Source of the DNA: an uncultured Planctomycetaceae bacterium | GTDB taxonomy: Bacteria; Planctomycetota; Phycisphaerae; SM23-33 | DNA: 64,000 bases | Direction of reading: 5' to 3' | NCBI GenBank assembly: GCA_964417755.1 | Contig: CAYQJH010000002.1 | Location: 2,693 to 66,692, forward strand | In this document: positions 7,215 to 29,782 of the stretch, in pieces | Layout: every line of letters begins with the position of its first letter | Numbering within the stretch: position 1 is the stretch's first letter | The notes under the pieces: generated by a model | What the model was told of the DNA's origin: nothing | Seen by the model: the letters and a program-made list of their open reading frames with translations, nothing else | The model's database searches: none | Position numbers and translations under genes: made by a program

Positions 7215-7372
7215 GTTACGCGATTGTGAGGCACAGCCTCCCGGGCTGTGCAATGCCATGGCGGACCGACAAAAAACAGCATGCCCGAGGGCGGGCTTCG
7301 CCTGAAGATACTGACAATGCCAACAGCATGCAGGCGAGACGCCTGCACCACAAAACAGCGACCGCCGTTCGA

Positions 7373-8758
7373 TTACTTAGCTGACGGATATTGGCCAGCG
7401 TCATCGTGGCGGTGCTTGGCGCCAGCCTGCCCGGTTGCGGCGGACTTTTCCGCCGCGACGGCCTTGATCGCCCGCGCCAGCCTGGCCACGCCTTCGGATA
7501 TGTCCTTCATTCCGGCAACGCCGAACGTCAGGCGAATGCGATTCGTCGGGATCTTCCTGGCCGGGTCGGGGCCGTAGCAGAATTCGCCGGGCAGATACAG
7601 CACGCCTTCATCCAGCGCCTTCTTGAACAGATCGCTCTTTAGCCCTGTGTCGATGTGCTGCGGCAGCGTGAGGTACACGTACAGGCCGCCCATCGGGATG
7701 GTCCACTTCGTCTGGCCGGGGAAGAAATCGCCCAGGTGCTTCTTGAGGGCCTCCAGCATCGTGTGGGCCTTCTTGTGGTAATTCTTCCGCAACTTCTCGA
7801 CGTGCTTGTAGTACAGGCCCTTCTGCAAGGCCGTCAGCAGCATGTGCTGACAGAGATTGGCTGAACCGAAATCCTGGTTGCCCTTTTGGTTCAGCACCGC
7901 ATCGACCAGGTCGCCAGGCAGCAGGCCATAGCCGGTCTTGAAGCCCGGCGCGAACGGCTTGCTGAAGGTCTGGAGCAGCGCGACGTACTGGTTGTCGCGG
8001 TCGTACTTCTTTATCGACGGCGGCGTATCGCCCTCGAAGGTCAACTCGCGGTAGGCGGCATCCTCGATCAGCAGGATGCGATGGTGCCTGGAGTACTTCT
8101 TGACGATCTCCAGCATGCGCTCGCGGCGGTCGGCTGACAGCGTGATGCCGGTGGGGTTCTGGTGATAGCTGGTGACGTAGACGACCTTGACCTTGGGCAG
8201 TTGGCCGGTTCTGTCCAGCTCGGCCAGCAGGGCCTCCAGGCTGTCGGGGATGATGCCATTGTCGTCCATCTCCAGGCAGCGGATAGTCGCGCCTAGCGAC
8301 TCCAGCACGCACGTATAGACGAAGTAGCTCGGCCAGGCTGTGATGATGATATCGCCCGGGTCGATCAGCACGTCGGCCAGAATGAATAGCAACTGCTGGC
8401 TGCCGTTGGTCACGACGATGTTGTCGGGTGTGGCCTTCCAATGGCTGGTCGGTACGCCGTCCAGGCTGGCCAGGTGCTGGAGGAGCATTTGTCGCAATTG
8501 CGTCAGGCCCTCGGTCGAGCCGTATTGCAGGGCGGTCTGGGCGGACTTGGGCGTCTTGGTCAACTCGCCGACCAACTCGGCAACGTGATCCGTTGGCAGC
8601 GTCTCGTAATCGACCAGGCCGGCGGCCAGGGAAATCAGGTTGGGTTTATCCAGCACGACGCTGAGCATGTAATTGATCGGCTGCGGCCGGGAGCGCCTGG
8701 CCCGTGCCGATAGACCAAAGCCCAGAGCCTTCTGAGCACTTCCACCTTTATTATCCAT
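7373..8758 (-). CDS. PLP-dependent aminotransferase (class I/II fold)
   Basis: SYHQNPTG motif and SKPFAPGFKTGY with the candidate PLP-lysine. The true start may lie downstream of the ORF start. Confidence 0.7.
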   Translation of the reverse strand: MDNKGGSAQKALGFGLSARARRSRPQPINYMLSVVLDKPNLISLAAGLVDYETLPTDHVAELVGELTKTPKSAQTALQYGSTEGLTQLRQMLLQHLASLDGVPTSHWKATPDNIVVTNGSQQLLFILADVLIDPGDIIITAWPSYFVYTCVLESLGATIRCLEMDDNGIIPDSLEALLAELDRTGQLPKVKVVYVTSYHQNPTGITLSADRRERMLEIVKKYSRHHRILLIEDAAYRELTFEGDTPPSIKKYDRDNQYVALLQTFSKPFAPGFKTGYGLLPGDLVDAVLNQKGNQDFGSANLCQHMLLTALQKGLYYKHVEKLRKNYHKKAHTMLEALKKHLGDFFPGQTKWTIPMGGLYVYLTLPQHIDTGLKSDLFKKALDEGVLYLPGEFCYGPDPARKIPTNRIRLTFGVAGMKDISEGVARLARAIKAVAAEKSAATGQAGAKHRHDDAGQYPSAK

Positions 8759-8858
8759 ACGCTGCTGCCTTCTTTCAGTGTGGTGGCCGTCGCGATCTTA
8801 AACGCTGCGACCACTGCGCCCGCGCTTGGTACACAACCTTTCCAGGCTGTGTCGCGCC

Positions 8859-8887
8859 TTGACGGGCCTGCGGACACGCTGTAATTT
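8859..8887 (+). promoter_or_regulatory. Candidate sigma-70-like promoter for galK giving a near-leaderless transcript
   Basis: TTGACG (8859-8864), 17-nt spacer, TAATTT (8882-8887). The galK ATG is at 8894. Confidence 0.35.
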
Positions 8888-8893
8888 CCAGCA

Positions 8894-10060
8894 ATGACGA
8901 CCATTGAGATTCTATCAGAGTTCCATCGATTTTACCAGCGCCCAGCCGACGGCCTTTCTCAAGCGCCCGGGCGGGTGAACCTCATCGGCGAACACACCGA
9001 CTATAACGGCGGTTTCGTGCTGCCCATCGCCATCGAGAAGAACACCCAGGCAGCCTTCGCGAGCCGAACCGATCGCATGGTTCGTTTGGCCTCGCTTCAG
9101 GCGGCCGGTCAGGCGGTGGAAGTGCCGCTGGATAAGAGCGTGCAACTGGGCGAGCCTAAGTGGGGCAATTACTGCAAAGGCGTCGTTGCTGAACTGCTTA
9201 AGGCCGGCATTGAACTTTGCGGCGCGGACATCCTCATCTCAAGCGATGTGCCGCTGGGCGGGGGCCTGTCGTCCTCAGCTTCGCTGGAGGTGGCGCTGGC
9301 GATGGCCTTGCTGGAACTTGCCGGCCGGGCCGGCAGCTTGCCGCCGAACGAATTGGCCCTTCTGTGCCAGCGGGCGGAAAACCTCTATGCGATGGCTCCG
9401 TGCGGCATAATGGACCAGTCGATAGCGGCGATGGCGCGCCCCGGCCATGCGCTGCTGATGGATTGCCGCTCCGGCCAGACGCAGCAGATTCCCTTCGACG
9501 ATCCGCGGGTGGTGCTGCTGGTGGCTGACACGCAGGTCAAGCACGCCATCGGCGACGGCGGGTATGGCGCGCGCCGCAGGCAATGCGCGGAGGCAGCCGA
9601 GATTCTTGGCTTATCTTCCCTTCGCGATGCTACGCCGCAGATGCTGGCCAAAGCGCAGGCAGACAGGCTGCTGGATGACAAGCAACTCATGCGGGCGCGG
9701 CACGTTATCGGCGAGATTCAGCGGACGCAGCAGGCCGTCGAGGCCCTTCAGGCCGGCCGATATGATGAGTTTGGCCAGTTGATGTATCAATCGCACAAGT
9801 CTCTGGCAAATGACTTCGAGGTCAGTTGCGTTGAATTGGATTGTATTGTTGAATTGGCTAGCCAGTTGCCGGGCGTATACGGCGCGAGGATGACCGGCGG
9901 CGGCTTCGGCGGCTGCGCGATCGTTCTCGCGCAGGCCGGACAGTCCCAGGGCATCGCTGATGCGGTTGCGGGAGGATTTGCATTGCGTTTTGGCCGGCGC
10001 TGCCCGATCTTCGCCACGCGAGCGGCGACGGGGGCATCGGCTGAGCGAATTGGCGGATAG
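8894..10060 (+). CDS. galK: Galactokinase
   Basis: GalK signature PGRVNLIGEHTDYNGG and GHMP motif PLGGGLSSSASLEVA. Confidence 0.85.
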   Translation: MTTIEILSEFHRFYQRPADGLSQAPGRVNLIGEHTDYNGGFVLPIAIEKNTQAAFASRTDRMVRLASLQAAGQAVEVPLDKSVQLGEPKWGNYCKGVVAELLKAGIELCGADILISSDVPLGGGLSSSASLEVALAMALLELAGRAGSLPPNELALLCQRAENLYAMAPCGIMDQSIAAMARPGHALLMDCRSGQTQQIPFDDPRVVLLVADTQVKHAIGDGGYGARRRQCAEAAEILGLSSLRDATPQMLAKAQADRLLDDKQLMRARHVIGEIQRTQQAVEALQAGRYDEFGQLMYQSHKSLANDFEVSCVELDCIVELASQLPGVYGARMTGGGFGGCAIVLAQAGQSQGIADAVAGGFALRFGRRCPIFATRAATGASAERIGG

Positions 10061-10084
10061 GGCGGTATGGCGGCGTCATCGCCG

Positions 10085-10205
10085 GCGCCGTGGTTTGGAA
10101 GCCTGGTGCCGTGGTTTGCGAAGCCGGAGGCGAAGCAACCACGTCTTCGGGATTGTGCAGGCCAGCGTGGTTGCTCCCGCTGCGCGTCCGCAAACCACGG
10201 CACAA
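10085..10205. repeat. Dispersed repeat, CCGTGGTTTGCG...CAAACCACGGC subfamily, with an internal tandem duplication
   Basis: Near-identical copy at 12215-12332 and a partial copy at about 50120-50200. Confidence 0.75.
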
Positions 10206-10327
10206 GCTATTCGCAACACTGGCAAGCAGCAGTTGCTATGCCGAAATAGGCTCCCTGATATTGTGGTTGCAGGCGCGGCCGCTATACTTCTTCAGTTGTT
10301 GACGCGCATCAAGAGAAAGGAAGACAC

Positions 10328-10981
10328 ATGGGCCTGAAACCTTCTCCACTTGGGCCGCAAATACTTGCTCTCAGCCTGGCCATCCTTGCAGTGGCGATCT
10401 GCATATTGCCGGCGGGCTGTGATCGCGGCGGCAATAATGATGATCAAAACGGGTCGGCGGCGGGCGTCTCAGGTGTCACCACCAAGCCGACCACGGCGAC
10501 CACCCAGGCAGGCAGGGCACTTGATGTCGATGCGCTTCTGGCAAAGGCCCTGCCTAACCTTGATGATGAAGCCAAGCCGCTTTCCCGCTACATGGGCGGC
10601 GGCGGGCTGATGCTGATGTTCGTGGATACCTCCTGCCCGTTCTGCGCCGCGGCAATGAAGGAAATGCCTGTGGTCGCGCAGGTTCTGGAGGAGCAGAAAA
10701 TCGCGGCTGTCATCATAAACAATGATGACTCAAGAGAGCGCGTGAAGGCCTTCTACGCCAAGAACCAGCCGGCGACGAAGGTGGTTTACGATTCTGGTCC
10801 CGCCACGCGTGAAGCATGGAATGTCAATGCGGTTCCGACGGTTATCTACATCACGCCGGGCAGGAACATCAGCTACCAGGGCAAGGCACTCTGGGCTGAC
10901 ATGGGCCTGGCTATCGAGAAATCGCTTTCCCTACCGGCTGGCAGCATCAAGTTCACCTCCGGCGGCACGAGCTATGGCTGA
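10328..10981 (+). CDS. Thioredoxin-fold (TlpA/redoxin-like) lipoprotein
   Basis: Lipobox LPAGC and a CPFC CxxC motif in a thioredoxin-like context. Confidence 0.65.
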   Translation: MGLKPSPLGPQILALSLAILAVAICILPAGCDRGGNNDDQNGSAAGVSGVTTKPTTATTQAGRALDVDALLAKALPNLDDEAKPLSRYMGGGGLMLMFVDTSCPFCAAAMKEMPVVAQVLEEQKIAAVIINNDDSRERVKAFYAKNQPATKVVYDSGPATREAWNVNAVPTVIYITPGRNISYQGKALWADMGLAIEKSLSLPAGSIKFTSGGTSYG

Positions 10982-11060
10982 GGCAAGGGCTGATCTCGCA
11001 CCGCCCGTGCGGCGGCGCAACTAACTGTTTGAAGAAAGCGAGACTCTCGAAGGGGAAAAC

Positions 11061-11729
11061 ATGATACGCACACCATGGATGGTGATTCTGCTTTTAGTCG
11101 GGCTTGCCGGGTTGGCCAACTGCTCAACGAAGACACAGGACAAGGCGACGACGAAGCCGGCCTCGCAGCCGGCTACAAGGAGCACATCTGACGCGCCGGC
11201 TGTGGATGCGGAACATGCGATTGTTGCCGCAGCCCGAAATCAGATCGGCAAGACGCTAAGCTATGACCCCTCCTATACGAGCCTGTCCTACCCCAATGGT
11301 GATGTGCCAATCGAGAAGGGCGTATGCACTGATGTGGTGATCCGGGCACTGAGAAGTGCTTTGCGCATGGATCTGCAGAGGCTGGTTCACGAGGACATGA
11401 AGGTCGCCTTCGACAAGTATCCGCAGCAATGGGGCCTGAAGTCGCCCGACAGCAACATCGACCATCGCCGCGTGCCAAACCTCAGGCGATTCTTTGAGCG
11501 CCAAGGCTGGTCGCTTCCGGTGACGCAAAAGAATGAAGACTATCTCCCAGGCGACCTGGTCACATGCACAGTGGCAGGCAAGTTGCCGCACATAATGGTG
11601 GTCAGCGGCCGCAAGAGTATTGACGGCATGCCGCTGGTCATCCACAACATTGGCCGGGGCGTCCAGGAAGAGCCTCGCCTCTTCGAGTTTCCCCTCACCG
11701 GCCATTACCGCGTCGGAATGAGAAGATAG
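11061..11729 (+). CDS. Hypothetical lipoprotein (possibly DUF1287-like)
   Basis: Signal peptide plus lipobox (GLANCS). No catalytic motifs recognised. Confidence 0.5.
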   Translation: MIRTPWMVILLLVGLAGLANCSTKTQDKATTKPASQPATRSTSDAPAVDAEHAIVAAARNQIGKTLSYDPSYTSLSYPNGDVPIEKGVCTDVVIRALRSALRMDLQRLVHEDMKVAFDKYPQQWGLKSPDSNIDHRRVPNLRRFFERQGWSLPVTQKNEDYLPGDLVTCTVAGKLPHIMVVSGRKSIDGMPLVIHNIGRGVQEEPRLFEFPLTGHYRVGMRR

Positions 11730-11745: not shown

Positions 11746-12159
11746 CTATCCCACGTATTGGATCACGTAATACCAGTTGCCTGCCGCCAGCAGCAGGGCG
11801 ATTGTCCAAAGGATCTTCCGCTCCATCTTGCTGGCCTGCAGGACGACCCGCCTGCCAGCCAGCATTCGCACCGTCAGCAGGGCAGAGGCGATTGCCGCGC
11901 ACGCCATCACCAGTGGGTTGAAGCGGATGGCCAGCAGGATATCCCCCTGCAGCAGCGCCAGTGCCGCCCTTGTGCAGCCGCACGTCGGGCAGGGCAATGT
12001 CGTGATGTTCTTGAACAGGCACAGGTTTACCGCCTGGCCGCTGTGCCGGCTAAGCCCAAGCGAAACCAGCACCACGCCCGCCCAGAGGGCCGCGAAGGCC
12101 AGCGCCAACCAGGGCCAACGCGGAATGCGAGCGGCAGGTTGAAGATAGAGCCTCATCAA
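11746..12159 (-). CDS. DUF2752-like membrane protein
   Basis: CPTCGCTRA motif (the CPxCGxTR motif characteristic of DUF2752) flanked by TM helices. Confidence 0.55.
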   Translation of the reverse strand: MMRLYLQPAARIPRWPWLALAFAALWAGVVLVSLGLSRHSGQAVNLCLFKNITTLPCPTCGCTRAALALLQGDILLAIRFNPLVMACAAIASALLTVRMLAGRRVVLQASKMERKILWTIALLLAAGNWYYVIQYVG

Positions 12160-12214
12160 GCAACATGATAATCCACGCCGTTCTCTTTGTCAGGCAAAGA
12201 AGACTTCTTGGTGG

Positions 12215-12332
12215 CCGTCGTGGTTGGCGAAGTTGGCGCCGTGGTTTGCGAAGCCGGAGGCTAAGCAACCACGTCTTTGGCATATGCAGGTCACCGTGGT
12301 TGCTTCCGCTGTGCGTCCGCAAACCACGGCAC
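12215..12332. repeat. Dispersed repeat (copy of the 10085-10205 element)
   Basis: GCCGTGGTTTGCGAAGCCGGAGGCtAAGCAACCACG...CCGCTGtGCGTCCGCAAACCACGGCAC. Confidence 0.75.
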
Positions 12333-12417
12333 CGGCAGGACGAAAATGTGGACACGCGCACGGCAGGAGAGTTACTCTGGCAGCGAGTCGGCGAATCTGG
12401 TAGACTCTGGAAGCCCT

Positions 12418-12462
12418 CTGCGTAAGCAGGGGGATCCCCGCCTTCCGGCGGGGGCTTCCAGT
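12418..12462. repeat. B-family hairpin repeat (CCCGCCTTCCGGCGGGGGCTTCC)
   Basis: Other copies at 21934-21985, 31127-31180, 43842-43900 and 59031-59092. Confidence 0.7.
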
Positions 12463-12532
12463 TGTTGCTTTTCAGGCCGGACGTGTTGGTCCGCAGGTCT
12501 GGAACCTGCGCCACAACTATCGGAGACGAAAC

Positions 12533-13666
12533 ATGGCGGAAGTATTGCTCAAAGGCGTTACCAAGGAGTTTCCCGGCGGCGTCCAGGCTGTCAAAAGCAT
12601 GGACCTCAAGATCGCCGATTCGGAATTCATCGTGCTGGTCGGGCCGAGCGGCTGCGGCAAGACGACCACGCTGCGAATGGTGGCCGGCCTGGAAGAAATC
12701 AGCAGCGGCACCATCAGCATCGGCGACCGCATCGTCAATGACGTGCCCCCCAAGGACCGCGATATCGCCATGGTCTTCCAGAACTACGCCCTCTACCCGC
12801 ACATGAGCGTGTACAAGAACATGGCCTTTGCGCTTAAGCTCCGCAAGTACCCCAAGAAGGAGATCGACCAGCGCGTCCGCGAGGCGGCCAAGATCCTCGG
12901 CATCGAGGCCCTGCTGGATCGCAAGCCCAAGGCCCTTTCGGGCGGGCAGAGACAGCGCGTAGCCGTCGGGCGGGCGATTGTCCGCAAGCCCAAGGCGTTC
13001 CTCTTCGACGAGCCGCTGTCGAACCTCGACGCCAAGCTCCGCGTTGAGACTCGCGCGGAACTGAAGCGCCTGCATCATCAGCTTAGAACAACCACCATCT
13101 ACGTCACGCACGACCAGGAAGAGGCCATGACCCTGGGCGATCGCATCGTGGTGATGAAGGATGGCATCATGCAGCAGTGCGGCAGCCCGCTGGAGGTCTA
13201 CCACGCGCCATCTAACCAGTTCGTGGCTGAGTTCGTCGGCACGCCGCCGATGAATTTCTTCAAGGGCAGCCTGGAGGCGGCCAATGGCGGACTGTATTTC
13301 GGCGAAGGCACGGCCCGGCTGAGGCTGCCGGAGGATAAGGCCCAGGTCCTGCGCGGCAAGAACGTTGTCGGCAAAGAGGTCTGGCTGGGTGTTCGTCCCG
13401 AGGCCATCGCCGTCGTCAGCGAAGGCCGATTCGCCGGGCAAGACAACTCGCTGCCGGTTCAACTATCAGTGATCGAACCCCTCGGCGAGAAGATGGACCT
13501 GTTTACTTCGACGGCCAAGACTCCGCACATTGTTGCCCGCGTGGACGCCCAGCGAGGCCTGAAGCCCAACATGGCCGTCACGCTGCACCTGGACATGCGA
13601 AAGGTCCACGTTTTCGAGCCGTCCAAGGGCGGAGCGAATTTGACGGTGGAAGTCGCAACGTTGTAA
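12533..13666 (+). CDS. Sugar ABC transporter ATP-binding protein (MalK/MsmX/UgpC family), orphan ATPase
   Basis: Walker [18 protein letters not shown] signature, and a C-terminal MalK-type regulatory/TOBE-like domain. No adjacent permease genes. Confidence 0.85.
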
Positions 13667-13840
13667 TGACGAATGACGAAGCCCGAATGATGGGCCCTGC
13701 TCTGCGAAGCCCGCTTCGCAGGGCGAAGCAGAGTCAATGGCGAATGCCTGGAAATGACGAAGTGAACTTGTTCGTCACTCGTCATTCAGGTATTGATTCG
13801 ACATTCTGGTTTCGTCATTCGTCATTCTTTAGCAGAAATA
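13667..13840. repeat. Cluster of GAATG(A/G)CGAA / TTCGTCATTC half-sites around a hairpin
   Basis: At least four copies in both orientations. Related clusters at 1141-1170 and 35512-35561. Confidence 0.6.
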
Positions 13841-13858
13841 ACAAGAATCAGAACCATT

Positions 13859-15748
13859 ATGAACAATGAGAACATCCCCGTCCGCATCTATTCCGATTCA
13901 CAAGCAGCATCCAGGGCGGTGGCAGAGGCCATCGCTGAACTGATTCGCGCCCGCCAGGCAGCCGGCAAGACGGTGGTGCTGGGCCTGGCAACCGGCCATA
14001 CGCCGGTCAATGTTTACCGCGAACTGATCCGCATGCATCGCCAGGAGAAGCTGGACTTCTCCAACGTCATTACGTTCAACCTGGACGAATATTGGCCCAT
14101 AGCGCACAACGCATTCCAGGCCTACCACGTCTGGATGCATGAGAATTTCTTCAAGCACGTAAACATCCCGGCCGCCAATATCCACATGCCATCAGGCGAG
14201 GTTGCAGCCAAGGACGTCGAGGCCTCGTGCCGGGCGTACGACCAGGCCATCGCCAAGGCCGGAGGGATCGACTTCCAGATCCTGGGCATCGGGCGAAGCG
14301 GGCATGTTGGCTTCAACGAGCCCGGCTCGCCATACGACAGCGCGACCCGCCGCGTCCACCTGGACGCCCTGACCCGCAAGGACGCCGCGAGCGATTTCTT
14401 CGGCGAAGACAACGTGCCGGAGATGGCCATCACAATGGGCCTGGGCACCATTCTGCAAGCCAGGCGGATCGTCCTGCTGGCCTTCGGCGAGCACAAGGCC
14501 CCGATCATCCGGCGGGCGGTCGAGGGTGAAGTCTCGATCAATGTGCCAGCCAGCTTCCTGCAGGAACATCCCGGCGCAACGATGTATCTCGACTGTGCAG
14601 CTGCCGCCGACCTGACCCGCGTGGCAACCCCTTGGCTGCTGGGGCCATGCCAGTGGGACGACATGCTGCAACGGCAGGCTGTCATCTGGCTGGCAAAGAA
14701 ACTCGCCAAGCCCATCCTCAAGCTCACCGACGAAGACTACAACGAGAACGGCCTGAGCGAGCTGACGCACGCATGCGGCGGGGCGTACCAGCTGAACATC
14801 CGGATATTCCGCCGGATGATGGAGACCATCACCGGCTGGCCAGGCGGAAAGAAGAAGAAATACCGCGTGCTGGTCTTCAGCCCCCACCCGGACGACGACG
14901 TGATTTGCATGGCCGGCACGATGACAAGGCTGGTCGAGCAGGGCCACCAGGTGCATGCCGCCTACATGGTCAGCGGGTATCTCAGCGTGTTCGACCACGA
15001 CGTCTCGCGATTCGCGGAATTTGTCCGTGAGTTCAATCGCATCTTCGGGCTGACACCGGACCAGACCGCAGCCATCGAGGATCATATAGAGAAGTTCCTG
15101 CGACAGAAGAGGCCGGGCGATATCGACTCCGCCGAGGTTCAGCAGATCAAGGCGCTGATTCGCCGCACGGAGGCCGTCGCGGCGGCGAAGTATTGCGGCC
15201 TGAAGGAAGAGCACTGCCACTTCCTGGACATGCCTTTCTACAACACGGGCAAGGTCGAGAAGCTCTCGATTGCCGAGGAAGATATCGCTGCCGTCGGCCG
15301 TAGTCTCGATGCGGTGCGCCCGGAGATCATCTTTGCCGCCGGCGACATGTCCGACCCGCACGGCACGCACCGCCTGTGCCTTGATGCCGCCCTGGCGGCC
15401 ATCGAACGGTACGCAAAGGCCGGCAACCCTAGGCCGGAGGTTTGGCTGTATCGCGGGGCCTGGCAGGAATGGCCCGGCGAGCAGATAGAGATGGCTGTGC
15501 CGCTCTCGCCTGACGAACTGCGGCGCAAACGCTACGCAATCTTTCGCCATCAGAGCCAGAAGGACCGGGCGATGTTCCCGGGCGCATACGACACGCGTGA
15601 ATTCTGGCAGCGGGCTGAAGACCGCAACATGGGCACAGCCAAGCTCTTCGACCAGATGGGCCTGCCGGAATACCACGCCCTGGAAGCATTCGCCCGGCAT
15701 CCGGTCAGACCATCGGCGCACGTGGCGTCGCTGATTACCCCTGCATAA
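13859..15748 (+). CDS. nagB: Glucosamine-6-phosphate deaminase (NagB) fused to a PIG-L/LmbE-like deacetylase domain
   Basis: N-terminal domain LGLATGHTP...FNLDEYW is NagB-like. C-terminal domain VLVFSPHPDDDVIC is the LmbE/PIG-L zinc-deacetylase motif. ATG at 13859. Confidence 0.8.
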   Translation: MNNENIPVRIYSDSQAASRAVAEAIAELIRARQAAGKTVVLGLATGHTPVNVYRELIRMHRQEKLDFSNVITFNLDEYWPIAHNAFQAYHVWMHENFFKHVNIPAANIHMPSGEVAAKDVEASCRAYDQAIAKAGGIDFQILGIGRSGHVGFNEPGSPYDSATRRVHLDALTRKDAASDFFGEDNVPEMAITMGLGTILQARRIVLLAFGEHKAPIIRRAVEGEVSINVPASFLQEHPGATMYLDCAAAADLTRVATPWLLGPCQWDDMLQRQAVIWLAKKLAKPILKLTDEDYNENGLSELTHACGGAYQLNIRIFRRMMETITGWPGGKKKKYRVLVFSPHPDDDVICMAGTMTRLVEQGHQVHAAYMVSGYLSVFDHDVSRFAEFVREFNRIFGLTPDQTAAIEDHIEKFLRQKRPGDIDSAEVQQIKALIRRTEAVAAAKYCGLKEEHCHFLDMPFYNTGKVEKLSIAEEDIAAVGRSLDAVRPEIIFAAGDMSDPHGTHRLCLDAALAAIERYAKAGNPRPEVWLYRGAWQEWPGEQIEMAVPLSPDELRRKRYAIFRHQSQKDRAMFPGAYDTREFWQRAEDRNMGTAKLFDQMGLPEYHALEAFARHPVRPSAHVASLITPA

Positions 15749-15754
15749 AGAGGT

Positions 15755-15868
15755 GCCGTTTCCTTCGATATTGCGGTTTCTTGTTGGACATTCGCTATTC
15801 AACTGTCGGCCCTTAACCGCAGAATATCCAACAATAGAACCGCAGAATATCGAAGTGAAAGAGACCGC
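15755..15868. repeat. D-family repeat, inverted pair (TTCCTTCGATATTCTGCGGTTCTATTGTTGGATATTCGATATTC)
   Basis: Forward copy at 15755-15800 and reverse copy at 15815-15868. Further copies at 1-80, 15996-16055 and 63115-63290. Confidence 0.75.
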
Positions 15869-15995
15869 CATTGATTCAGGAAACAGATGAATTGATCGCC
15901 ATATTTGTGGCCAGCACAAGGACGGCGTCCAAAGCCAAAGCATAATCCATGTCCGACGCAGCCCGCTTTGCCGAGGGACGTGACGGGAGCGTTGC

Positions 15996-16055
15996 TATGC
16001 CGTTTCCTTCGATATTCTGCGGTTCTATTGTTGGATATTCGATATTCTCTGTTCC
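15996..16055. repeat. D-family repeat (forward copy)
   Basis: Near-identical to the 15755-15800 copy. Confidence 0.75.
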
Positions 16056-16120
16056 ATTGTTTTGGTTGCTCTTGTCGGCCAGCTTGCACTAATATCTGCT
16101 CCGAAAGGATAAGAACGATT

Positions 16121-16930
16121 ATGGACAAAGCTGTAATTCTGGCGCGTGGCCTGGGCACGCGGATGCGTAAGCAGGATGGCTCGGCCAACTTGACGCAGCA
16201 GCAGGCAGCCATCGCCGAGACTGGCGTCAAGGCCCTCATTCCCGTCGCCGGCGGGACGTTCCTGGACTATGTGCTGGCTGCCCTGGCCGAGGCCGGCTAT
16301 AGCCAGGTCTGCCTGGTGATTGGCCCCGAGCACGTCGAGACGCGCGATTACTACAGCCGCCTGCAAACTAGCCGGCTTAAGATCAGCTTTGCCATCCAGG
16401 AAAAGCCGCTGGGCACCGCCGACGCGGTGGCGGCCGCAGCGGGCTTCACCGGCAAGGACCACTTCCTGGTGATCAACTCCGACAATTACTATCCGCCGGT
16501 GGCACTGAAGGGCCTGCGACAGCTTAAGGGCCCGGGCCTGGCTGGGTTCGAGAAGAACGGAATGCTGGCCGGCAGCAACATCCCCGCCGACCGGATCGCC
16601 AAGTTCGCCGTCGTCCAAGTCAATGACAGCGGCAACATGGTCCGCATAATTGAAAAGCCCGATCCCGCTGTGCTGGCCGGTATGAAGGAGCCGGTCCTGG
16701 TCAGCATGAACTGCTGGCGGTTCAACGATTCGATCTACGAAGCCTGCCGAAACATCAAGCCCTCCCCACGCAACGAACTCGAGATCACCGACGCCGTGCA
16801 GTACACCATCGACAAGCTCGGCCAGAAATACGCCATCGTCGATGTCAAGGCGCCAGTTCTGGATCTCTCCAGCCGCAGCGACGTCGAGGCCGTCGTCGCC
16901 AAACTCAACGGCCTGGAGATCAGACTGTGA
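16121..16930 (+). CDS. Sugar-1-phosphate nucleotidyltransferase (GlmU-N/RmlA-like NTP-transferase)
   Basis: ILARGLGTRM matches the G-x-G-T-R nucleotide-binding motif, with a ~15-aa insert after it. RBS AAAGGATAAG. The ORF 5' extension is repeat DNA. Confidence 0.7.
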   Translation: MDKAVILARGLGTRMRKQDGSANLTQQQAAIAETGVKALIPVAGGTFLDYVLAALAEAGYSQVCLVIGPEHVETRDYYSRLQTSRLKISFAIQEKPLGTADAVAAAAGFTGKDHFLVINSDNYYPPVALKGLRQLKGPGLAGFEKNGMLAGSNIPADRIAKFAVVQVNDSGNMVRIIEKPDPAVLAGMKEPVLVSMNCWRFNDSIYEACRNIKPSPRNELEITDAVQYTIDKLGQKYAIVDVKAPVLDLSSRSDVEAVVAKLNGLEIRL

Positions 16931-18303
16931 TGCAGTTACAGGAGTTGTCCGACCGTAAGTCCACCACGCAGCGACTTTCCGCCGGCGGTCTCAGTGCGGC
17001 GGCCGCCGCCGACAAGGCACAACTATTTTGTCAGTGCGCCGCTGTGGCGACGAAGCATGGCCTGAGCGACTCCGCCGGCGTGCATGCTCTTTATGTGCCA
17101 GGCCGCATCGAGGTGCTCGGCAAGCACACAGACTACGCCGGCGGGCGCAGCATGCTCACCGTGCCGGAAAAGGGCTTCTGCATCATCGTCGCGCCGCGCC
17201 AGGACAAGACGGTGCGGATGATCCGCGCTGATGGCCTGGACGCACCGGCCATCTACGCGGTCGATCCCGACCTGACGCCGATCATGGGGCACTGGTCGAA
17301 TTACCCGATGACGGTCGCGCGGCGCGTGGCCCGCAATTTCGCGGCCCCGCTGCACGGGGCGGACATTATCTTCCTGAGCGATTTGCCTCTGGCGGCAGGC
17401 ATGAGCAGTTCCAGCGCGCTGGTTATCGTTTCCTTCCTGGCCCTTTCTGCCGCCAACGATCTGCCCGCACGGCCGGAGTACCAGGCCAATATCCGCAGCA
17501 TCGAAGACCTGGCGGGCTATCTCGGCTGCAACGAGAACGGCCAGAGCTTCGGCCCGCTGGTTGGCGACAAGGGCGTGGGCACCTTCGGCGGAAGTGAGGA
17601 CCACACAGCCATCCTCACCTGCCGCAACGGCATGCTCAACCAGTATTCATACTGTCCGGTGAAGTTCGAGCGGCGGATCGCTCTGCCGGAGGGCTATGTC
17701 TTCGCCATCGCCTCCAGCGGCGTGGAGGCAGAGAAGACCGGCCAGGCCCGCGAGAAATACAACCGGGCATCGCTGCTCAGCCGGGCGGTCGTCGAAACAT
17801 GGAACAAGGCCACCGGGCGAAGCGAGCCCCACATGGCCGCCGCCAGCCAAAGCAGCCCCGACGCGCCTGCTCGCATGCGAGAAATCCCCCTCAGAGCCAA
17901 GCACGATCACTTCCAGCCGGCTGAAATGCTCAGCCGGTTCGATCATTTCTATGGCGAGAGCGCCGAGATCATTCCCGCGGCCGGCGATGCCCTTTCACGC
18001 GGCGACATGGTGGAATTCGGCCGGCATGTCTGGCGTTCGCAGGAGGCGGGAACAAGGCTCCTGGGCAACCAGATACCCGAGACGGTCTTTCTGGCCAAGG
18101 CAGCGTGCGACAATGGCGCGGCGGCTGCGTCGGCCTTCGGCGCTGGTTTCGGCGGAGCGGTCTGGGCGCTGGTCGAGCGAAACGATGCGGAGAGTTTGCT
18201 GAAAGCATGGGAAGCAGCCTATGCCAAGGCATTCCCCGCCCCAGCTGGCAAGGCGGTGTACTTCGTCACCGAAGCCGGCCCCGCGGCGTTCGAGTTGAAG
18301 TGA
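16930..18303 (+). CDS. GHMP-family sugar-1-kinase (galactokinase-like)
   Basis: PGRIEVLGKHTDYAGG (GalK-like motif 1), PLAAGMSSSSALVIV (motif 2) and GAGFGG (motif 3). Its start overlaps the stop of the upstream gene (GTGATG). Confidence 0.75.
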   Translation: MQLQELSDRKSTTQRLSAGGLSAAAAADKAQLFCQCAAVATKHGLSDSAGVHALYVPGRIEVLGKHTDYAGGRSMLTVPEKGFCIIVAPRQDKTVRMIRADGLDAPAIYAVDPDLTPIMGHWSNYPMTVARRVARNFAAPLHGADIIFLSDLPLAAGMSSSSALVIVSFLALSAANDLPARPEYQANIRSIEDLAGYLGCNENGQSFGPLVGDKGVGTFGGSEDHTAILTCRNGMLNQYSYCPVKFERRIALPEGYVFAIASSGVEAEKTGQAREKYNRASLLSRAVVETWNKATGRSEPHMAAASQSSPDAPARMREIPLRAKHDHFQPAEMLSRFDHFYGESAEIIPAAGDALSRGDMVEFGRHVWRSQEAGTRLLGNQIPETVFLAKAACDNGAAAASAFGAGFGGAVWALVERNDAESLLKAWEAAYAKAFPAPAGKAVYFVTEAGPAAFELK

Positions 18304-18474
18304 CTGCCCCTGACCGGAAGACGGATACCGAAAGATCGTTAGGCCGGAAGGCAGTGAAGAAGCTGACATGGCTGAAGGTATCTGATAAAGCGACAGCCAC
18401 GAGTTAACGAGTCAACCAGTTAACGCCGTTTGTCGTTAGGCCGTTGCCGTTACGCCGTTCCAAAGGGTGGAGAC

Positions 18475-21400
18475 ATGGCAGAGAACGATCACGTCAAGGC
18501 GTTGCAGGAAGTCCAGTCGAGGTTGGATGAGCTTTCGCGGCGGATGGATGGTTTCGAGAGCCGGCTGCAAAGCGTTCAGGCGCAACTGCCGCAGACGGCA
18601 GAGCCGGCCAAACCGCCTCCGCTGCCAGCGGACTATGTTCGGGGTGAAGATGCTCAGGCCGCCGCCAAGGCATTCGATGCTGCAGCCGATTGGACGCCTG
18701 TCGCCTGGCCGCCGCCTCCTGCCATTCCAGCGGAACAGAACGTTCCGTTGCCCTCACGGTCAGTTTCAGACATTGTGTCGCCGCCGACGGCAGTTGACGA
18801 GATCGGCCGGCTCATAGGCGCCACTGCGGAAGAAGCAGCCAAGCCGTCCGCAGCCGCATCCGCAACCGCACCCGCGGGGCGGACGCTGTCCATCGAACAG
18901 GTCATTGGAGCGCGATGGATGCTCATCGCCGGCGTTGTGGCGCTCATCGCAGCCGGCGGATACTTCTTCAAGCTCGCCTACGACAAGGGCTGGATCACGC
19001 CGATGCACCGCCTGGTGATGGGCGGCGTGTTTGGCCTGGTGCTTATTGCCGGCGGCTGCTGGATGCTTCGCAAAAAGCTCAACGCTTTCGCCGGGGCGAT
19101 GATGGGCGTGGGCATCGTCTGGATGTACCAGTCCATCTACGTCGCCAGCCCGAGCGGCCTGTGGCAGGGCCTGCACGCCGTCAGCACGCCCACGTCGTTT
19201 GCGCTCATGTGCGCGGTGACGATCCTGGGCATGACGCTGGCTGCCGCAACGAAGATGCAACTGACAGCCGTCATCTCGCTGGCCGGCGCCATCGCCACGC
19301 CGATGCTGCTCTCCACGGGCGAGAACCGCTTTGTCACGCTGATGGTGTACCTGCTGGCTGTCAACGTCGGCTTTGCCGCACTGGGCCTGCGGAAGCGTTG
19401 GCAGGTGCTCGCCCCGCTGGCAATGGCCGGCACGGCCATCCTCTTTGGCCTGTGGTTCGAGCGGCACTACCAGGCCGCCGCTTACGCGCAAACTATTGCC
19501 TTCGCATGGGCATTCGCCATCCTCTATGCCGCGACGGGCATCTGGGCACAGCGAAGCAGCCGGCATGATCCGCGCCTCTGCGCCGCAATGGTCTTCGCCC
19601 CAGCCATCCTGCTGGCATGGCTGCTGATCGTCGCCAATCCACCGGGCCAGCACCACCCGTTTGCTCTTCAGTTGCTGGTTCTCGCCGCAGCCGTGTTCAT
19701 GTACAGTCTGGTCAATCAGCTCAAGATGGCATCTGTCCTCACGCTGACGGCCAGCTGCGCGATGATGACGGGGCAGTTCATTGCCTCCAACCAGGACGCC
19801 CTGCGCTTGTGGTGCTGTCTGTACAGTTGGTTGATGCTGGCCTTGCCGTGCGTGGCACTTGCCCGCCCGGCCAGCAGAAGGTGGGATCGCACCAATATCG
19901 CTCTCTGGGCGATAGCGGGATTGTTCCACCTTTTCAACGTGACAATGCTTATCAATTCGGAGCGCCATCATCTCGTGCTGACACAGGTGATGCTTTTCGA
20001 CGCTCTTGTGCTGGTGATAGCACAGTGGCGCAGATGGCGATGGATCAGGATGGAATTGCTGCTGCTGACGGCAATCTGCGTCGTCGCTGCGGTGGAGTTG
20101 CCACGCCCCCAGCTCAGCGTCTGGCCGGCCTTGTCCTGGACGTGGAGCTTCTTCGCCCTGTTCATGGCTGATATCGTTCGCCGGGCATTCTGGCAGAGCA
20201 ATCGCAGGCAGATCGTGCTGGAGTGCATCCTGTCGCTGCTGGCCAGCGCCGGTATGTTTGCGTTGACGTACACCATTATGTCTGCGGCCTATCCATACTG
20301 GACCGGCCTGTACGCTGTCGTCATCTCCGCTGTGCTGGCGGGCGTGGTGTATGTGCTGCATCGCTGGCCCAAAGACAAGACCCTTGCCTCATGCATCCTT
20401 GTGCAGGCGCTGCTGCTGCTTGCCCTGGCTGCGCCGATCCAGTACGACCACACAGCCGTCACTATCGCATGGATGCTGCAGGCGCTGGCCGGCATGATTG
20501 TCGCCCGCCTGCTGAAGAAGCCCTTCCATAGCCTGCTCTGGCTGTTCTCGCCGCTGACGGTCGGCGCCGCACTGCTTCACTGGTTCATCGACGTGCAAGA
20601 GGATGGCTGGCTGGGCGGGATACTATTCAGCCCGCTCGGAGTGAACATCACTATCGGCCTGGCTGTTGGCGTCGCGATCTCGCTGACGATCCTGGCCATC
20701 GTGTGGGTGCTGCGGTTGAACCAGCCGATTCGCAGTGAAGACGAAGATCGATCTCTTGCGGCGGTGCTAACCATCGTCGCCTCGATGCTATTCGTCATTG
20801 AAGTCATATACCTGCTGCCGCCGCTGAGCCAGGCCTATTGGCTGCTGGCGTGGACAGCCCTGCTGGCCGGTGCAGCAGTGAGGGCGCGCAGCGGCTATCT
20901 GAGCATCCTGGCGACAGTTATACTCGCGCTGACCATCCTGAAATGGCTTTTCGTTGATTCCGTCGGCAATTGGCGCGACCAGGCCTTCGCAGCCATGCCG
21001 GTTGCAGCCAATTGGCACGGCCTGGCCGGCCTGCTGCTGGCGGTGGCGGCGATCGCCTGGGCCAAGGTGCTTGCTTCCCGCAAGATCCTCCAGCCGGCTG
21101 CTCTGGTTGATGCGCTGGGCCTGCTTGGGCCGGTTGTGTTGGTTTGGGCAGGCAGCGTGGAGATCGTCCGCTTCTTCCAGGCAAGCGCCCAAACCTGGAG
21201 CGGCGACGCCACGCAGGCCACCCATACCGCGCTTTCTATCTGGTGGGGCTTGTCTGCAACGGCTGCCTTGGCGGTGGGCTTCATAATCCGCAAGGCGCCG
21301 CTGCGATACCTGGCCATCGCGATCTTCGCCGTCACCATCGGGAAGATCTTCTGGGCTGACCTCTCGAAGGTCGAGATGCCGTATCGCGTGCTGAGCCTTC

Positions 21401-21504
21401 TTGGCCTGGGCATGCTGCTGCTAAGCGGCTCGTGGCTGTACCATAGAGCGGCTGCCTCGAAGGAGAAGGATCATCCGCAAGACGAAATTCCAGGGCAGGG
21501 CTGA
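18475..21504 (+). CDS. Large polytopic membrane protein (DUF2339-like) with N-terminal coiled-coil
   Basis: ATG at 18475 with RBS AGGGTGGAG. About 60 aa of coiled-coil followed by more than 20 predicted TM helices across roughly 1000 aa. Confidence 0.55.
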   Translation: MAENDHVKALQEVQSRLDELSRRMDGFESRLQSVQAQLPQTAEPAKPPPLPADYVRGEDAQAAAKAFDAAADWTPVAWPPPPAIPAEQNVPLPSRSVSDIVSPPTAVDEIGRLIGATAEEAAKPSAAASATAPAGRTLSIEQVIGARWMLIAGVVALIAAGGYFFKLAYDKGWITPMHRLVMGGVFGLVLIAGGCWMLRKKLNAFAGAMMGVGIVWMYQSIYVASPSGLWQGLHAVSTPTSFALMCAVTILGMTLAAATKMQLTAVISLAGAIATPMLLSTGENRFVTLMVYLLAVNVGFAALGLRKRWQVLAPLAMAGTAILFGLWFERHYQAAAYAQTIAFAWAFAILYAATGIWAQRSSRHDPRLCAAMVFAPAILLAWLLIVANPPGQHHPFALQLLVLAAAVFMYSLVNQLKMASVLTLTASCAMMTGQFIASNQDALRLWCCLYSWLMLALPCVALARPASRRWDRTNIALWAIAGLFHLFNVTMLINSERHHLVLTQVMLFDALVLVIAQWRRWRWIRMELLLLTAICVVAAVELPRPQLSVWPALSWTWSFFALFMADIVRRAFWQSNRRQIVLECILSLLASAGMFALTYTIMSAAYPYWTGLYAVVISAVLAGVVYVLHRWPKDKTLASCILVQALLLLALAAPIQYDHTAVTIAWMLQALAGMIVARLLKKPFHSLLWLFSPLTVGAALLHWFIDVQEDGWLGGILFSPLGVNITIGLAVGVAISLTILAIVWVLRLNQPIRSEDEDRSLAAVLTIVASMLFVIEVIYLLPPLSQAYWLLAWTALLAGAAVRARSGYLSILATVILALTILKWLFVDSVGNWRDQAFAAMPVAANWHGLAGLLLAVAAIAWAKVLASRKILQPAALVDALGLLGPVVLVWAGSVEIVRFFQASAQTWSGDATQATHTALSIWWGLSATAALAVGFIIRKAPLRYLAIAIFAVTIGKIFWADLSKVEMPYRVLSLLGLGMLLLSGSWLYHRAAASKEKDHPQDEIPGQG

Positions 21505-24902: not shown

Positions 24903-25994
24903 ATGCCAATAAAGATGGTCAAGAACCAGGTCCTGCCCATCGGGGTGGACCTTGGCGCCAGCATGGTCAAAGTAGCCCAGCTTCGAAACGCCGGTGAGAC
25001 AGTGGAGCTCTTGGCTGCCGCCATTATCGAGATCAACAAGGAGCAGCGGCAGGCAAACCCTGCGCAGCGATTGGATAATCTCAGCGATTCCCTGCGCCAG
25101 GTCGTGAAGGCCAATCCCTTCCGCGGGCGCAAGTGCATCCTCTCTCTGCCGACCGAATTCGTCTTTGTGCATCATCTGAAGGTGCCCAAGATGCTTGAGA
25201 AGGAGCTGGCGGCTTCGCTGAGCATGGAGTTGCAGGGCAAGGCGCCGTTCAACGTCGACGACGCCGTGGTTCGCTACGTACTGGCCGGCGAGGTCTTCAA
25301 TGACGGCCAGCCGCGGCAGGAAGTCATCGTGGTCGCCGCCTCGCGCGACATCATCGAAAGCCACATCCGCATGGCCAACCGCGCGGGCCTGGAAGTGATC
25401 GGGATGAACATCGATGCCTGCGCAGTGGTGGAATGCTTCTCGCGGCTCTTCCGCCGAGCCAGCGATTCAGCCCGCACGATCCTGTACGTGGACATTGGCT
25501 CGGCCAGCACGCAGGTGGCGCTGTCGCATGGCAACCGGCTGGTCTTTGCCCGGAACCTGGCCATCGGCGGCGAGCAGTTGGACCAGGCCGTCGCCGAGGG
25601 CCTTGGCATTCCGCTGGACCACGCCCGCGTTCTGCGAAGAGACCCGCAGAACGCTCAGCAGGATTCGGCTGCTGTCAATGAGCTTTATCACCTGATGGAT
25701 AAACCGCTGGGCAATTTGGCTGATGAACTTACCCAGTGCCTTCATTACTACGAATCGGTATTTCGCAACCAGGGCGTAGAACGCGCGATATTCGTGGGCG
25801 GGCAGGCGTACGACAAGCGGCTGTGCCAGACACTGGCGCAGCGGCTGAACTTGCCGGCCCAGATCGGCGACCCGCTGATGCGGATCAAGCGGATCGCCGG
25901 CGCGGGGCTGCCTCTGGGCATGGATCGGCGCGAGCCGCAGCCTGACTGGGCGGTGGCGGTGGGGTTGTCCGTGGGTGCAGCAGAGGCTGCATAA
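24903..25994 (+). CDS. pilM: Type IV pilus assembly protein PilM
   Basis: Actin-like ATPase fold, IGVDLGASMVKVAQL N-terminus. First gene of the pilMNOP block. Confidence 0.8.
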   Translation: MPIKMVKNQVLPIGVDLGASMVKVAQLRNAGETVELLAAAIIEINKEQRQANPAQRLDNLSDSLRQVVKANPFRGRKCILSLPTEFVFVHHLKVPKMLEKELAASLSMELQGKAPFNVDDAVVRYVLAGEVFNDGQPRQEVIVVAASRDIIESHIRMANRAGLEVIGMNIDACAVVECFSRLFRRASDSARTILYVDIGSASTQVALSHGNRLVFARNLAIGGEQLDQAVAEGLGIPLDHARVLRRDPQNAQQDSAAVNELYHLMDKPLGNLADELTQCLHYYESVFRNQGVERAIFVGGQAYDKRLCQTLAQRLNLPAQIGDPLMRIKRIAGAGLPLGMDRREPQPDWAVAVGLSVGAAEAA

Positions 25995-26005
25995 ATGGAG
26001 CAAAC

Positions 26006-26728
26006 ATGAGCACGATTAACCTGCTGCCCGACGACTATATCCAGCGCAGCTGCCAGCGGCGCGCCAACGTGATGTGCCTTATCCTTTTTGCCGTGACGAT
26101 GATCGCGGTGGTTGCCGCCGTGGTCATCAGCGAGCGGCGCACCAGCGGCACGAGGCTGCTTGCCGACCAGGTAGACACCGCCTATGAGCACGCCCTGGCG
26201 GACATCGCGAAGATGAGGGAGATGGAGGCCCGCAGGCAGGACATGCTCGTCAAGGCCTCCGCAGCCTCGGCACTGCTTGAGCGCGTGCCTCGCAGCCATC
26301 TGCTGGGCATCATCGCCAATGCGCTTCCGAACAACACGTCCATCTACAAGCTTGAGTTGGACACCAAGCGAATCCTTGCGGCGCCGGCGGCGACGGCCAA
26401 GCCGGCGGCAAACAAGTTCGAGGCCATTGCAACCGCCAGAGAGGCCCAAAGCGCCGGCACGGTTGTGGCAATGGAGATGCTTGGGCTGGCTGGGACGGAC
26501 GTTGAGGTTGCGCGGCTGATCACCAACCTGGCCCGTAACCCGCTGATAGCCAGTGTCGACCTGGTCTACAGCCAGGAGCGATTGATCGAGAAGACGCCGG
26601 TACGGGAATTCCAGGTGCACCTGGAACTCAAGAGCAATGCTGATGCGCTCGATGACACGCAAGTGGCAGCCGCCGGCGCGGTTGAGGCACCCTCGACCGC
26701 TGACGGCGCCGCAGGAGTCAAGCAATGA
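26006..26728 (+). CDS. pilN: Type IV pilus assembly protein PilN
   Basis: Short cytoplasmic N-terminus (NLLPDDY) followed by a single TM, in PilN position. Confidence 0.7.
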   Translation: MSTINLLPDDYIQRSCQRRANVMCLILFAVTMIAVVAAVVISERRTSGTRLLADQVDTAYEHALADIAKMREMEARRQDMLVKASAASALLERVPRSHLLGIIANALPNNTSIYKLELDTKRILAAPAATAKPAANKFEAIATAREAQSAGTVVAMEMLGLAGTDVEVARLITNLARNPLIASVDLVYSQERLIEKTPVREFQVHLELKSNADALDDTQVAAAGAVEAPSTADGAAGVKQ

Positions 26729-29761: not shown

Positions 29762-29782
29762 GAAGGCCCCAGGCTCTTTTGT

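Follow-up and report, generated by a model that had tools for sequence, protein, structure and literature searches.

Introduction

In several described systems, an anomeric kinase paired with a nucleotidyltransferase leads from a free sugar to a nucleotide sugar. In Fkp, the L-fucokinase/GDP-fucose pyrophosphorylase of Bacteroides fragilis, and in plant FKGP, an N-terminal nucleotidyltransferase is joined to a C-terminal anomeric kinase of the GHMP superfamily, and a single polypeptide leads from the free sugar to the nucleoside diphosphate (NDP) sugar. AmgK/MurU, of N-acetylmuramic acid (MurNAc) and N-acetylglucosamine (GlcNAc) salvage in Pseudomonas, and HddA/HddC, of the GDP-heptose route, are likewise two-gene modules of anomeric kinase and nucleotidyltransferase. 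Human GALK2 and AGX1 make N-acetylhexosamine-1-phosphate (HexNAc-1-P) and then UDP-HexNAc, and plant GalAK and USP follow the same logic. In zebrafish, DrGKUP is a glucuronokinase fused to a putative UDP-glucuronic acid (UDP-GlcA) pyrophosphorylase (PMC3938481).

Here, we analyse a 64,000-nucleotide stretch of contig CAYQJH010000002.1 (positions 2,693 to 66,692, called the window throughout) from an uncultured Planctomycetaceae bacterium, in which four co-directional genes (12533-18303) encode an ABC ATPase, a fusion of the glucosamine-6-phosphate (GlcN-6-P) deaminase NagB with a PIG-L/LmbE zinc deacetylase domain (NagB-PIG-L), a sugar nucleotidyltransferase (NTase), and a kinase of the GalK fold. 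We propose that the NTase and the kinase form a pair that, in hundreds of bacterial species, probably makes a nucleotide sugar starting from a free one; its logic matches that of the systems above, and its proteins are in none of their families by the tests run. A first, sequence-only reading of the window had taken the four genes for one integrated amino-sugar locus. We consider it likely that three evolutionarily separable units (the pair, the fusion, and the ATPase) stand side by side here, and not one obligate four-gene pathway. Our confidence in this explanation as a whole is reasonable. Directly observed were which domains are present, how the pair is coupled and in one case fused, how far it is spread among phyla, and in what contexts the three units occur.

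Results

The kinase and the NTase form a pair conserved across phyla

The evidence that carries the proposal comes from 83 non-duplicate loci of the kinase family, whose neighbours were judged within the fetched flanks and for which gaps are approximate. The NTase adjoins the kinase on the same strand in 62 of the 83, immediately upstream in 59 and downstream in three, and for 49 of the 59 upstream NTases the gap is about 30 nucleotides or less. Gene calls overlap by 4 nucleotides in L001, L086, L087, and L168 (L numbers denote loci and P numbers proteins), and in the window the kinase start lies over the NTase stop, just as the sequence-only reading had described, with the TGA (16928-16930) falling inside the string GTGATG. 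One protein, P0167 (723 residues), is an NTase-kinase fusion in that order, the single such case. When all flanking open reading frames (ORFs) were clustered, the NTase was the only neighbour family kept across phyla. Adjacency, overlaps, and fusion are together strong comparative evidence for consecutive steps, and the earlier suggestion of an anomeric kinase plus pyrophosphorylase salvage pair is thus supported more strongly than before. Conservation of the gene neighbourhood, proposed earlier as a check, is found across phyla for the NTase and kinase; the NagB-PIG-L and ATPase genes are linked to them only in Phycisphaerae relatives.

Relatives of the kinase occur in at least 585 species genomes (one genome scanned per species) from about eight phyla that have been little studied. 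Gemmatimonas aurantiaca, a cultured carrier, is represented among the loci (L085), and a look-up of the exact sequence of the window's own kinase (P0001) gave no contig. The carriers are Planctomycetota (Phycisphaerae, Pirellulales, Planctomycetaceae), Gemmatimonadota, Acidobacteriota, Latescibacterota, Chloroflexota, Rhodothermales, Neomarinimicrobiota, and Actinomycetes. The library of representatives holds 964 clusters at 50% identity (E <= 1e-30) and may include some canonical galactokinases. Several of the bins labelled as other than Planctomycetota may be mis-binned or contain duplicates, which could inflate the phyletic spread. L027 and L028, two contigs of one metagenome-assembled genome (MAG; CAZIJC01, labelled Anaerolineales), have near-identical kinase loci with identical neighbours.

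Two further candidates emerged from these loci. P0002 (592 residues, named “galactokinase family protein”) was considered as a domain fusion and rejected, as it repeats internally some 130 residues of the central part of the kinase, probably through an assembly artefact. GFO/IDH/MocA oxidoreductases with a GFO_IDH_MocA_C2 domain, which we take to be typical of GH109 alpha-N-acetylgalactosaminidases, lie 14-19 nucleotides from the kinase in four loci where the NTase is not adjacent (upstream in L027, L061, and L075, downstream in L074). Enrichment of such genes near the kinase is weak, at 0.40 per 10 kb within 2 kb as against 0.14-0.30 farther out, and they were dropped as a conserved neighbour and kept as a lead only.

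The kinase belongs to a GalK-fold family distinct from galactokinases

The kinase belongs to the GHMP superfamily, scoring 32.0 bits with PF00288 (gathering cut-off 22.3) and 28.6 bits with PF08544 (cut-off 21), and the GalK signature domain PF10509 is present. Its best solved relatives are galactokinases and N-acetylgalactosamine (GalNAc) kinase (E = 1e-10 to 1e-17). An AlphaFold2 model built from 16 homologues (predicted local distance difference test score, pLDDT, 89; predicted template modelling score, pTM, 0.89) retrieved human GALK1 and Pyrococcus furiosus GalK in Foldseek, at template modelling (TM) scores of 0.7-0.9 and about 21% identity. With the galactokinase equivalog TIGR00131 (gal_kin, EC 2.7.1.6), however, the kinase scores 92.3 bits, below the cut-off of 226.65. 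A profile of the kinase family gives solved GalK, GALK2, and Gal1 chains 64-107 bits, as against 430-720 bits for its own members, so that the family appears as a clade of its own, not nested in GalK or GALK2; this placement is based on hidden Markov model (HMM) scores and profile scores against the PDB. The second galK noted earlier in the window (from 8894) is a genuine canonical galactokinase by TIGR00131 (Table 1), and the kinase described here is not a simple duplicate of it.

The signature region of the kinase, GRIEVLGKHTDY, has a Lys where the galactokinase motif GR(V/I)NLIGEH(T/I)DY has a Glu, giving GKHTDY in place of GEHxDY, and this Lys (K66) is kept in 135 of 137 representatives of 50%-identity clusters. 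Just before the catalytic Asp, where galactokinases have Met, 81 of the same 137 representatives have Glu and 52 have Gln; the family has GGS(E/Q)DH where galactokinases have GxMDQ. Conserved in the family are R60, D69, D225, and Y278 (the Tyr of the SxYNxR region), along with GHMP motifs II (LPxAAGMSSSSA; LPLAAGMSSSSA) and III (GAGFGG), and further conserved basic residues are found at R74, R132/R133, K270, and R280. D225 aligns with the Asp of GGGMDQ in GALK2 in the HMMER alignment, from which it was placed in preference to the hhalign alignment of the family with the window's galK, where the central region is misaligned (328 columns, listed identity 27%). Judged by these residues, the catalytic elements of the GalK fold, namely the catalytic Arg and Asp, are retained.

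Thus, the kinase shares with GalK (TIGR00131) and human GALK2 the fold, the catalytic Arg and Asp, the SxYNxR Tyr, and GHMP motifs II and III. It differs from both in its low identity, in the two altered motifs, and in an additional helical stretch of about 50 residues at its N-terminus, and from GalK also in having an NTase partner in the place of GalT. On the basis of these scores and motifs, the kinase is likely not a galactokinase and its sugar likely not galactose; we infer that it phosphorylates the anomeric position. The name “galactokinase” that automated annotation gives to the family is set beside “dTDP-glucose pyrophosphorylase” for the NTase.

Among the other systems, gene order here is that of Fkp, NTase then kinase, and P0167 is fused in that order as well. 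Unlike in Fkp, the kinase is of the GalK type and not of the fucokinase type, the NTase is short and RmlA-like (its relatives suggest UTP or dTTP, and not GTP), and the two are normally separate proteins. The kinase also differs from AmgK, a phosphotransferase of the APH fold, and from HddA, the HddA-like structure 4n3o matching it only at E = 6e-4. To our knowledge, the glucuronokinase part of DrGKUP (DrGK) is without the GalK signature. DrGKUP resembles the present pair in that a GHMP sugar-1-kinase works with a bacterial-type NTase, some 260 residues long, in UDP-sugar salvage; its 357-residue kinase differs in being of the glucuronokinase subfamily, described as a homologue of plant glucuronokinase (PMC3938481).

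The NTase probably uses a pyrimidine nucleotide

The NTase scores 77.3 bits with PF00483 (gathering cut-off 21.2) and reaches none of the NCBIfam equivalogs rmlA_long (98 bits, cut-off 320), Arch_glmU (103, cut-off 292), glmU (39, cut-off 367), and galU (39, cut-off 327), nor MurU (32, cut-off 250) or HddC (36.5, cut-off 300). The sequence-only reading had named two groupings that would speak against it, of the kinase with canonical galactokinases and of the NTase with GlmU or MurU orthologues, and neither was found.

Conserved in the family are GLGTRMR, Q93-x-x-P-x-GTADAV, NSDNYYP, EKP, and SPRGELE, with GLGTRMR, NSDNYYP, and EKP invariant in our alignment A3. After the GxGTR motif there is an insertion of about 20 residues, which appears to be family-specific since alignments to solved structures start only past it (profile position 37-38). 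Of the solved relatives of the NTase, dTDP- and UDP-glucose pyrophosphorylases match it best. In the alignment, Q93 falls on the Gln of the RmlA motif VQxxPxGLAxA, a residue that presumably reads the pyrimidine base. Because of this alignment and these relatives, the second substrate is probably uridine triphosphate (UTP) or deoxythymidine triphosphate (dTTP). Source databases name the homologues “nucleotidyltransferase family protein” where they do not use the automatic name given above.

NagB-PIG-L is linked to the pair in one sublineage

The fusion is a full-length member of NF002557/PRK02122, the “glucosamine-6-phosphate deaminase-like protein” family (927 bits, cut-off 384), and passes TIGR00502 (nagB; 249.8 bits, cut-off 236.9) and PF02585 (67 bits, cut-off 28.2). 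PF01182 spans residues 13-240 of the fusion, and PF02585 spans residues 338-514. The deaminase motifs FNLDEY and GHxGFNEPGS are invariant in alignment A2, as are the PIG-L motifs SPHPDDD (H343, D345, D346) and HGTHR (H501-G-T-H504); (P/A)H(P/A)DD and HxxH are the defining metal and catalytic motifs of the PIG-L/LmbE family. The C-terminal domain, which is not homologous to NagA, has its best solved matches in diacetylchitobiose deacetylases (archaeal Dac). A PIG-L-family de-N-acetylase is likewise paired with GlcN-6-P deamination in the archaeal chitin pathway (Dac plus GlcN-6-P deaminase), from which the present protein differs in having both predicted activities in one polypeptide. Literature searches on a NagB/PIG-L fusion found no paper.

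Linkage of the fusion to the pair is confined to a sublineage of the Phycisphaerae, comprising the window and eight independent loci of relatives. It adjoins the pair in L003, L004/L015, L010, L069, L086, L087, L168, and the window, and lies nearby on the opposite strand in L020. Among the 80 genome loci of the kinase, only 4 have NagB-PIG-L. A reciprocal scan of 80 metagenomic NagB-PIG-L loci (50-70% identity) outside this sublineage found neither the NTase nor the kinase in the flanks of any. Their recurrent neighbours were SusC (12 loci), SusD (8), AnmK (8), MurQ (7), ROK kinases (7), a NagX-like membrane protein (7), GH20 hexosaminidases (6), and DeoR regulators (6). Since neighbours of the AnmK, MurQ, ROK, and GH20 types handle or make GlcNAc-6-phosphate (GlcNAc-6-P), this context fits conversion of GlcNAc-6-P to fructose-6-phosphate by the fusion.

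The earlier proposal that the fusion performs both the NagA-like and the NagB step is therefore plausible as regards its two sets of catalytic motifs and its neighbours, with the deacetylase substrate suggested by context. We infer the reactions of the PIG-L domain in this way, and free GlcNAc or chitobiose, by analogy with archaeal Dac, would be an alternative substrate. An integrated four-gene amino-sugar locus is not borne out by the evidence, given the restriction of NagB-PIG-L to one sublineage, its absence beside the pair elsewhere, and the still narrower linkage of the ATPase (below). That the kinase acts on an amino sugar was shown by none of the tests run.

The ATPase stands without its importer in the window

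The ATPase is a member of the UgpC subfamily (NF008653, 476 bits, cut-off 432) with PF17912 and PF08402, and is 79% identical to that of L087. It is linked to the other genes only in the three closest relatives, L086, L087, and L168, where it shows 77-80% identity at the DNA level. A complete importer ends with the ATPase gene in L086 and L087, where it is preceded in order by a binding-protein/permease fusion, a second permease, and a DUF5107 gene; in L168 only DUF5107 precedes it. Searches with tblastn for the relatives' permeases, binding protein, and DUF5107 gave no match in the 64-kb window, and no remnant of DUF5107 or of a permease was found in the 800-nucleotide gap upstream of the ATPase or across the window. 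Homology to the relatives sets in 11 nucleotides before the ATPase ATG. Because the importer genes are absent here and homology starts so close to the gene, the isolated ATPase looks like a local rearrangement and not a conserved design. Calling it an orphan, as had been done, is correct for the window, where it has no membrane partner, and incorrect as a property of the lineage; the idea that it serves an unlinked importer in the manner of MsmX is not upheld, as in L086 and L087 it is part of a linked ABC importer.

The DUF5107 protein (about 690 residues, with TPR) always stands before the ATPase in L086, L087, and L168, and a literature search on DUF5107 gave no paper on the kinase family or the fusion. 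The permease genes before it in L086 and L087 are very long (853-939 residues), and one is fused to a solute-binding domain.

Layout of the region and its repeats

All four ORFs are present on the forward strand as first described, and their domains were confirmed with Pfam and NCBIfam (Table 1). The window has a G+C content of about 60%. The NagB-PIG-L ORF opens at 13793 and the NTase ORF at 15905, the likely starts being the ATG codons at 13859 and at 16121, where in the NTase homology to the relatives sets in; the kinase starts at GTG 16927 or ATG 16930.

Table 1. Genes and inverted repeats of the region, with the canonical galK of the window
Feature	Position	Strand	Basis or remark
UgpC/MalK/MsmX-type ABC ATPase (CUT1 sugar importers)	12533..13666	+	ABC_tran + OB_MalK + TOBE_2
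Inverted repeat between ATPase and NagB-PIG-L genes	13665..13826		25-nt arms, 92% complementary, 112 nt apart
NagB (GlcN-6-P deaminase) + PIG-L/LmbE zinc deacetylase fusion, 629 aa	13859..15748	+	NF002557, TIGR00502, PF02585
Inverted repeat between NagB-PIG-L and NTase genes	15822..16040		perfect 34-nt arms, 151 nt apart
Sugar-1-phosphate nucleotidyltransferase (NTase), RmlA/GalU-like, 269 aa	16121..16930	+	PF00483
GalK-fold GHMP anomeric sugar kinase (predicted), signature GKHTDY	16927..18303	+	three GalK/GHMP Pfam domains above cut-offs
Canonical galactokinase galK, context outside module	8894..10060	+	TIGR00131 304.1 bits vs cut-off 226.65

The genes are packed more loosely than had been implied, with a spacer of 192 nucleotides between the first and second and one of 372 between the second and third, both holding long inverted repeats. 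The longer spacer (15749-16120), with repeat arms at 15822-15855 and 16007-16040, folds at -130 kcal/mol (z = -5.0). Relatives have 0 nucleotides (L086, L087) or 94 nucleotides (L168) at the same place and DNA homology skips the window's spacer, so that it looks like a genome-specific insertion in the operon, resembling a miniature inverted-repeat transposable element (MITE) or a repetitive extragenic palindromic (REP) sequence. The repeat at 13665-13826 is built from GAATGACGA-type repeats and is probably a small repeat element or hairpin outside the coding module. Both spacers are absent from the relatives, and an 18-nucleotide core (GCCCGCTTYGC...) common to the two occurs only these two times in the window. 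Elsewhere, a palindromic REP-like element of about 100 nucleotides is present in two copies, after the canonical galK (10103-10206) and upstream of the ATPase (12235-12333), which share the exact 24-mer GCCGTGGTTTGCGAAGCCGGAGGC. Scans for sigma-70 promoters and terminators gave a signal at background level.

Directly downstream of the kinase is a gene for a DUF2339 membrane protein of 1024 residues (18430-21504), which is not conserved beside the pair in relatives, and farther downstream lies a type IV pilus/type II secretion cluster (24903-32544) with PilM, two T2SSE ATPases, and T2SSF. Two long reverse-strand ORFs, at 12050-13462 (470 residues) and 14192-15943 (583 residues), overlap the ATPase and NagB-PIG-L genes; with their low-complexity, Arg/Gly/Ala-rich translations, they look like spurious frames of the kind expected in high-G+C DNA.

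Discussion

In light of the three units being separable, what might each of them do? We propose that the NTase and the GalK-like kinase are a translationally coupled two-step sugar-activation module, in which the kinase would use ATP to phosphorylate the anomeric hydroxyl of a free sugar other than galactose, and the NTase would join the resulting sugar-1-phosphate to an NTP, probably UTP or dTTP, giving an NDP-sugar for glycan synthesis. In the fusion, the PIG-L domain would de-N-acetylate GlcNAc-6-P (or GlcNAc) and the NagB domain would deaminate GlcN-6-P to fructose-6-phosphate. The ATPase would be an energising subunit, the remnant of a CUT1-type ABC sugar importer whose membrane parts stand directly upstream in two close relatives.

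Several points weigh against this proposal. The NagB-PIG-L stop overlaps the NTase start in L003, L086, and L087, and in L069 it overlaps the kinase start directly (this locus, 8058-11377 of a Phycisphaerae MAG, has the NTase nowhere in its 13 kb); within the Phycisphaerae sublineage, these overlaps argue for co-expression, and hence for some functional link between fusion and pair. Co-expression, and with it an amino-sugar substrate in that sublineage, seems to us possible and on balance doubtful. In addition, 19 of the 83 kinase loci are without the NTase in the fetched flanks, and the partner would therefore be unlinked or different in some genomes. For K66 and Q93, the proposed roles were taken from alignments with homologues of solved structure and from the structural literature, and literature searches gave no paper, enzymatic or genetic, on the GKHTDY kinase family.

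Which sugar the pair might take can be approached from the neighbouring genes or from the kinase itself. The neighbours suggest an integrated N-acetylhexosamine locus, in which GlcNAc, GalNAc, or an oligosaccharide would enter through an importer driven by the ATPase, kinase and NTase would yield HexNAc-1-P and UDP-HexNAc in turn, and NagB-PIG-L would break down the surplus; we regard this as a tentative option that probably does not apply. The order (ATPase)-NagB-PIG-L-NTase-kinase is kept in the window, L086, L087, and L168, and the order of the last three genes in L003, L004/L015, and L010 as well, the overlaps just described point the same way, and so do the C2-domain GFO/IDH/MocA genes close to the kinase, weak as their enrichment is. 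Every wall-building bacterium, moreover, needs UDP-HexNAc, and the presence of the pair in so many phyla would then make sense. Against this stand the two linkage counts (none of the 80 NagB-PIG-L loci of other lineages, and 4 of the 80 kinase loci), the lack in the cluster of a 6-kinase or mutase that would join the two branches, and the GEHxDY signature of human GalNAc kinase, whose retained Glu leaves the invariant Lys unexplained. That Lys, standing at the position of the signature Glu, which is said to bind galactose O6 in GalK structures and is reportedly an Ala in plant galacturonic acid kinase, suggests a different chemistry at C6, with a uronic acid, a 6-sulfate, a sulfonate, or a sugar without C6 as candidates. 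As a refinement of the pair proposal, the kinase may thus act on a sugar with an anionic C6 (D-galacturonate, D-glucuronate, a 6-sulfated hexose, or sulfoquinovose), K66 pairing with the acid group and the pair serving UDP-uronic-acid or similar salvage. The near-invariance of K66 and the conserved basic residues R74, R132/R133, K270, and R280 favour this idea, as does the precedent of an NTase with a uronate-1-kinase in zebrafish DrGKUP (PMC3938481). We nonetheless judge it rather unlikely, as K66 might simply pair with the Glu or Gln beside the catalytic Asp, clustering of the flanking ORFs showed no enrichment of uronate-related genes around the pair, known glucuronokinases are of a different GHMP subfamily, and the idea was drawn from sequence and from GalK and GalAK structure-function data.

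Two other explanations are less likely. A peptidoglycan-recycling analogue of AmgK/MurU, in which the GHMP kinase would yield GlcNAc- or MurNAc-alpha-1-phosphate and the NTase its UDP derivative, could draw on SpoIID lying directly upstream of NagB-PIG-L-NTase-kinase in L003 and L004, on NagB-PIG-L lying beside AnmK and MurQ in other phyla, and on a weak NTase-MurU match (E = 8e-8). It appears quite improbable, since the match is far under the MurU cut-off, the SpoIID linkage is found in only two or three related loci, the AmgK fold differs, and the invariant D69, equivalent to the O3/O4-binding Asp of GalK, would be expected to clash with the 3-O-lactyl carboxylate. The kinase might also be a divergent galactokinase which, with a UDP-galactose pyrophosphorylase, makes up a redundant galactose route, an Isselbacher-type bypass of GalT. 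The GalK fold and mostly retained signature are compatible with such a route, and the annotated genes flanking the canonical galK (4485 to 11729) include no galT. The score of the kinase with TIGR00131, the Glu-to-Lys and Met-to-Glu/Gln changes in sugar-contact motifs, the canonical galK in the same window, and the separate clade with about 21% identity to galactokinases nevertheless make this the most improbable explanation of all.

If the kinase did act on a sugar with an anionic C6, it would represent an unrecognised bacterial class of anomeric kinases, and the pair would provide direct salvage to UDP-acidic sugars in Planctomycetota, Gemmatimonadota, Acidobacteriota, and other phyla; we know of no such direct route described in bacteria. 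As to the fusion, NagB-PIG-L may be a GlcNAc-6-P deacetylase without homology to NagA, a candidate role open to direct testing. More generally, whether an environmental or recycled sugar can enter the bacterial envelope directly depends on routes from free sugar to nucleotide sugar, and kinase/pyrophosphorylase enzymes of this kind are working tools of chemo-enzymatic glycan synthesis, for which the present pair may be a new addition in the making of nucleotide sugars. Knowing the sugar of the pair would correct thousands of annotations and extend what is described of carbohydrate metabolism in Planctomycetota, Gemmatimonadota, and Acidobacteriota by one step.

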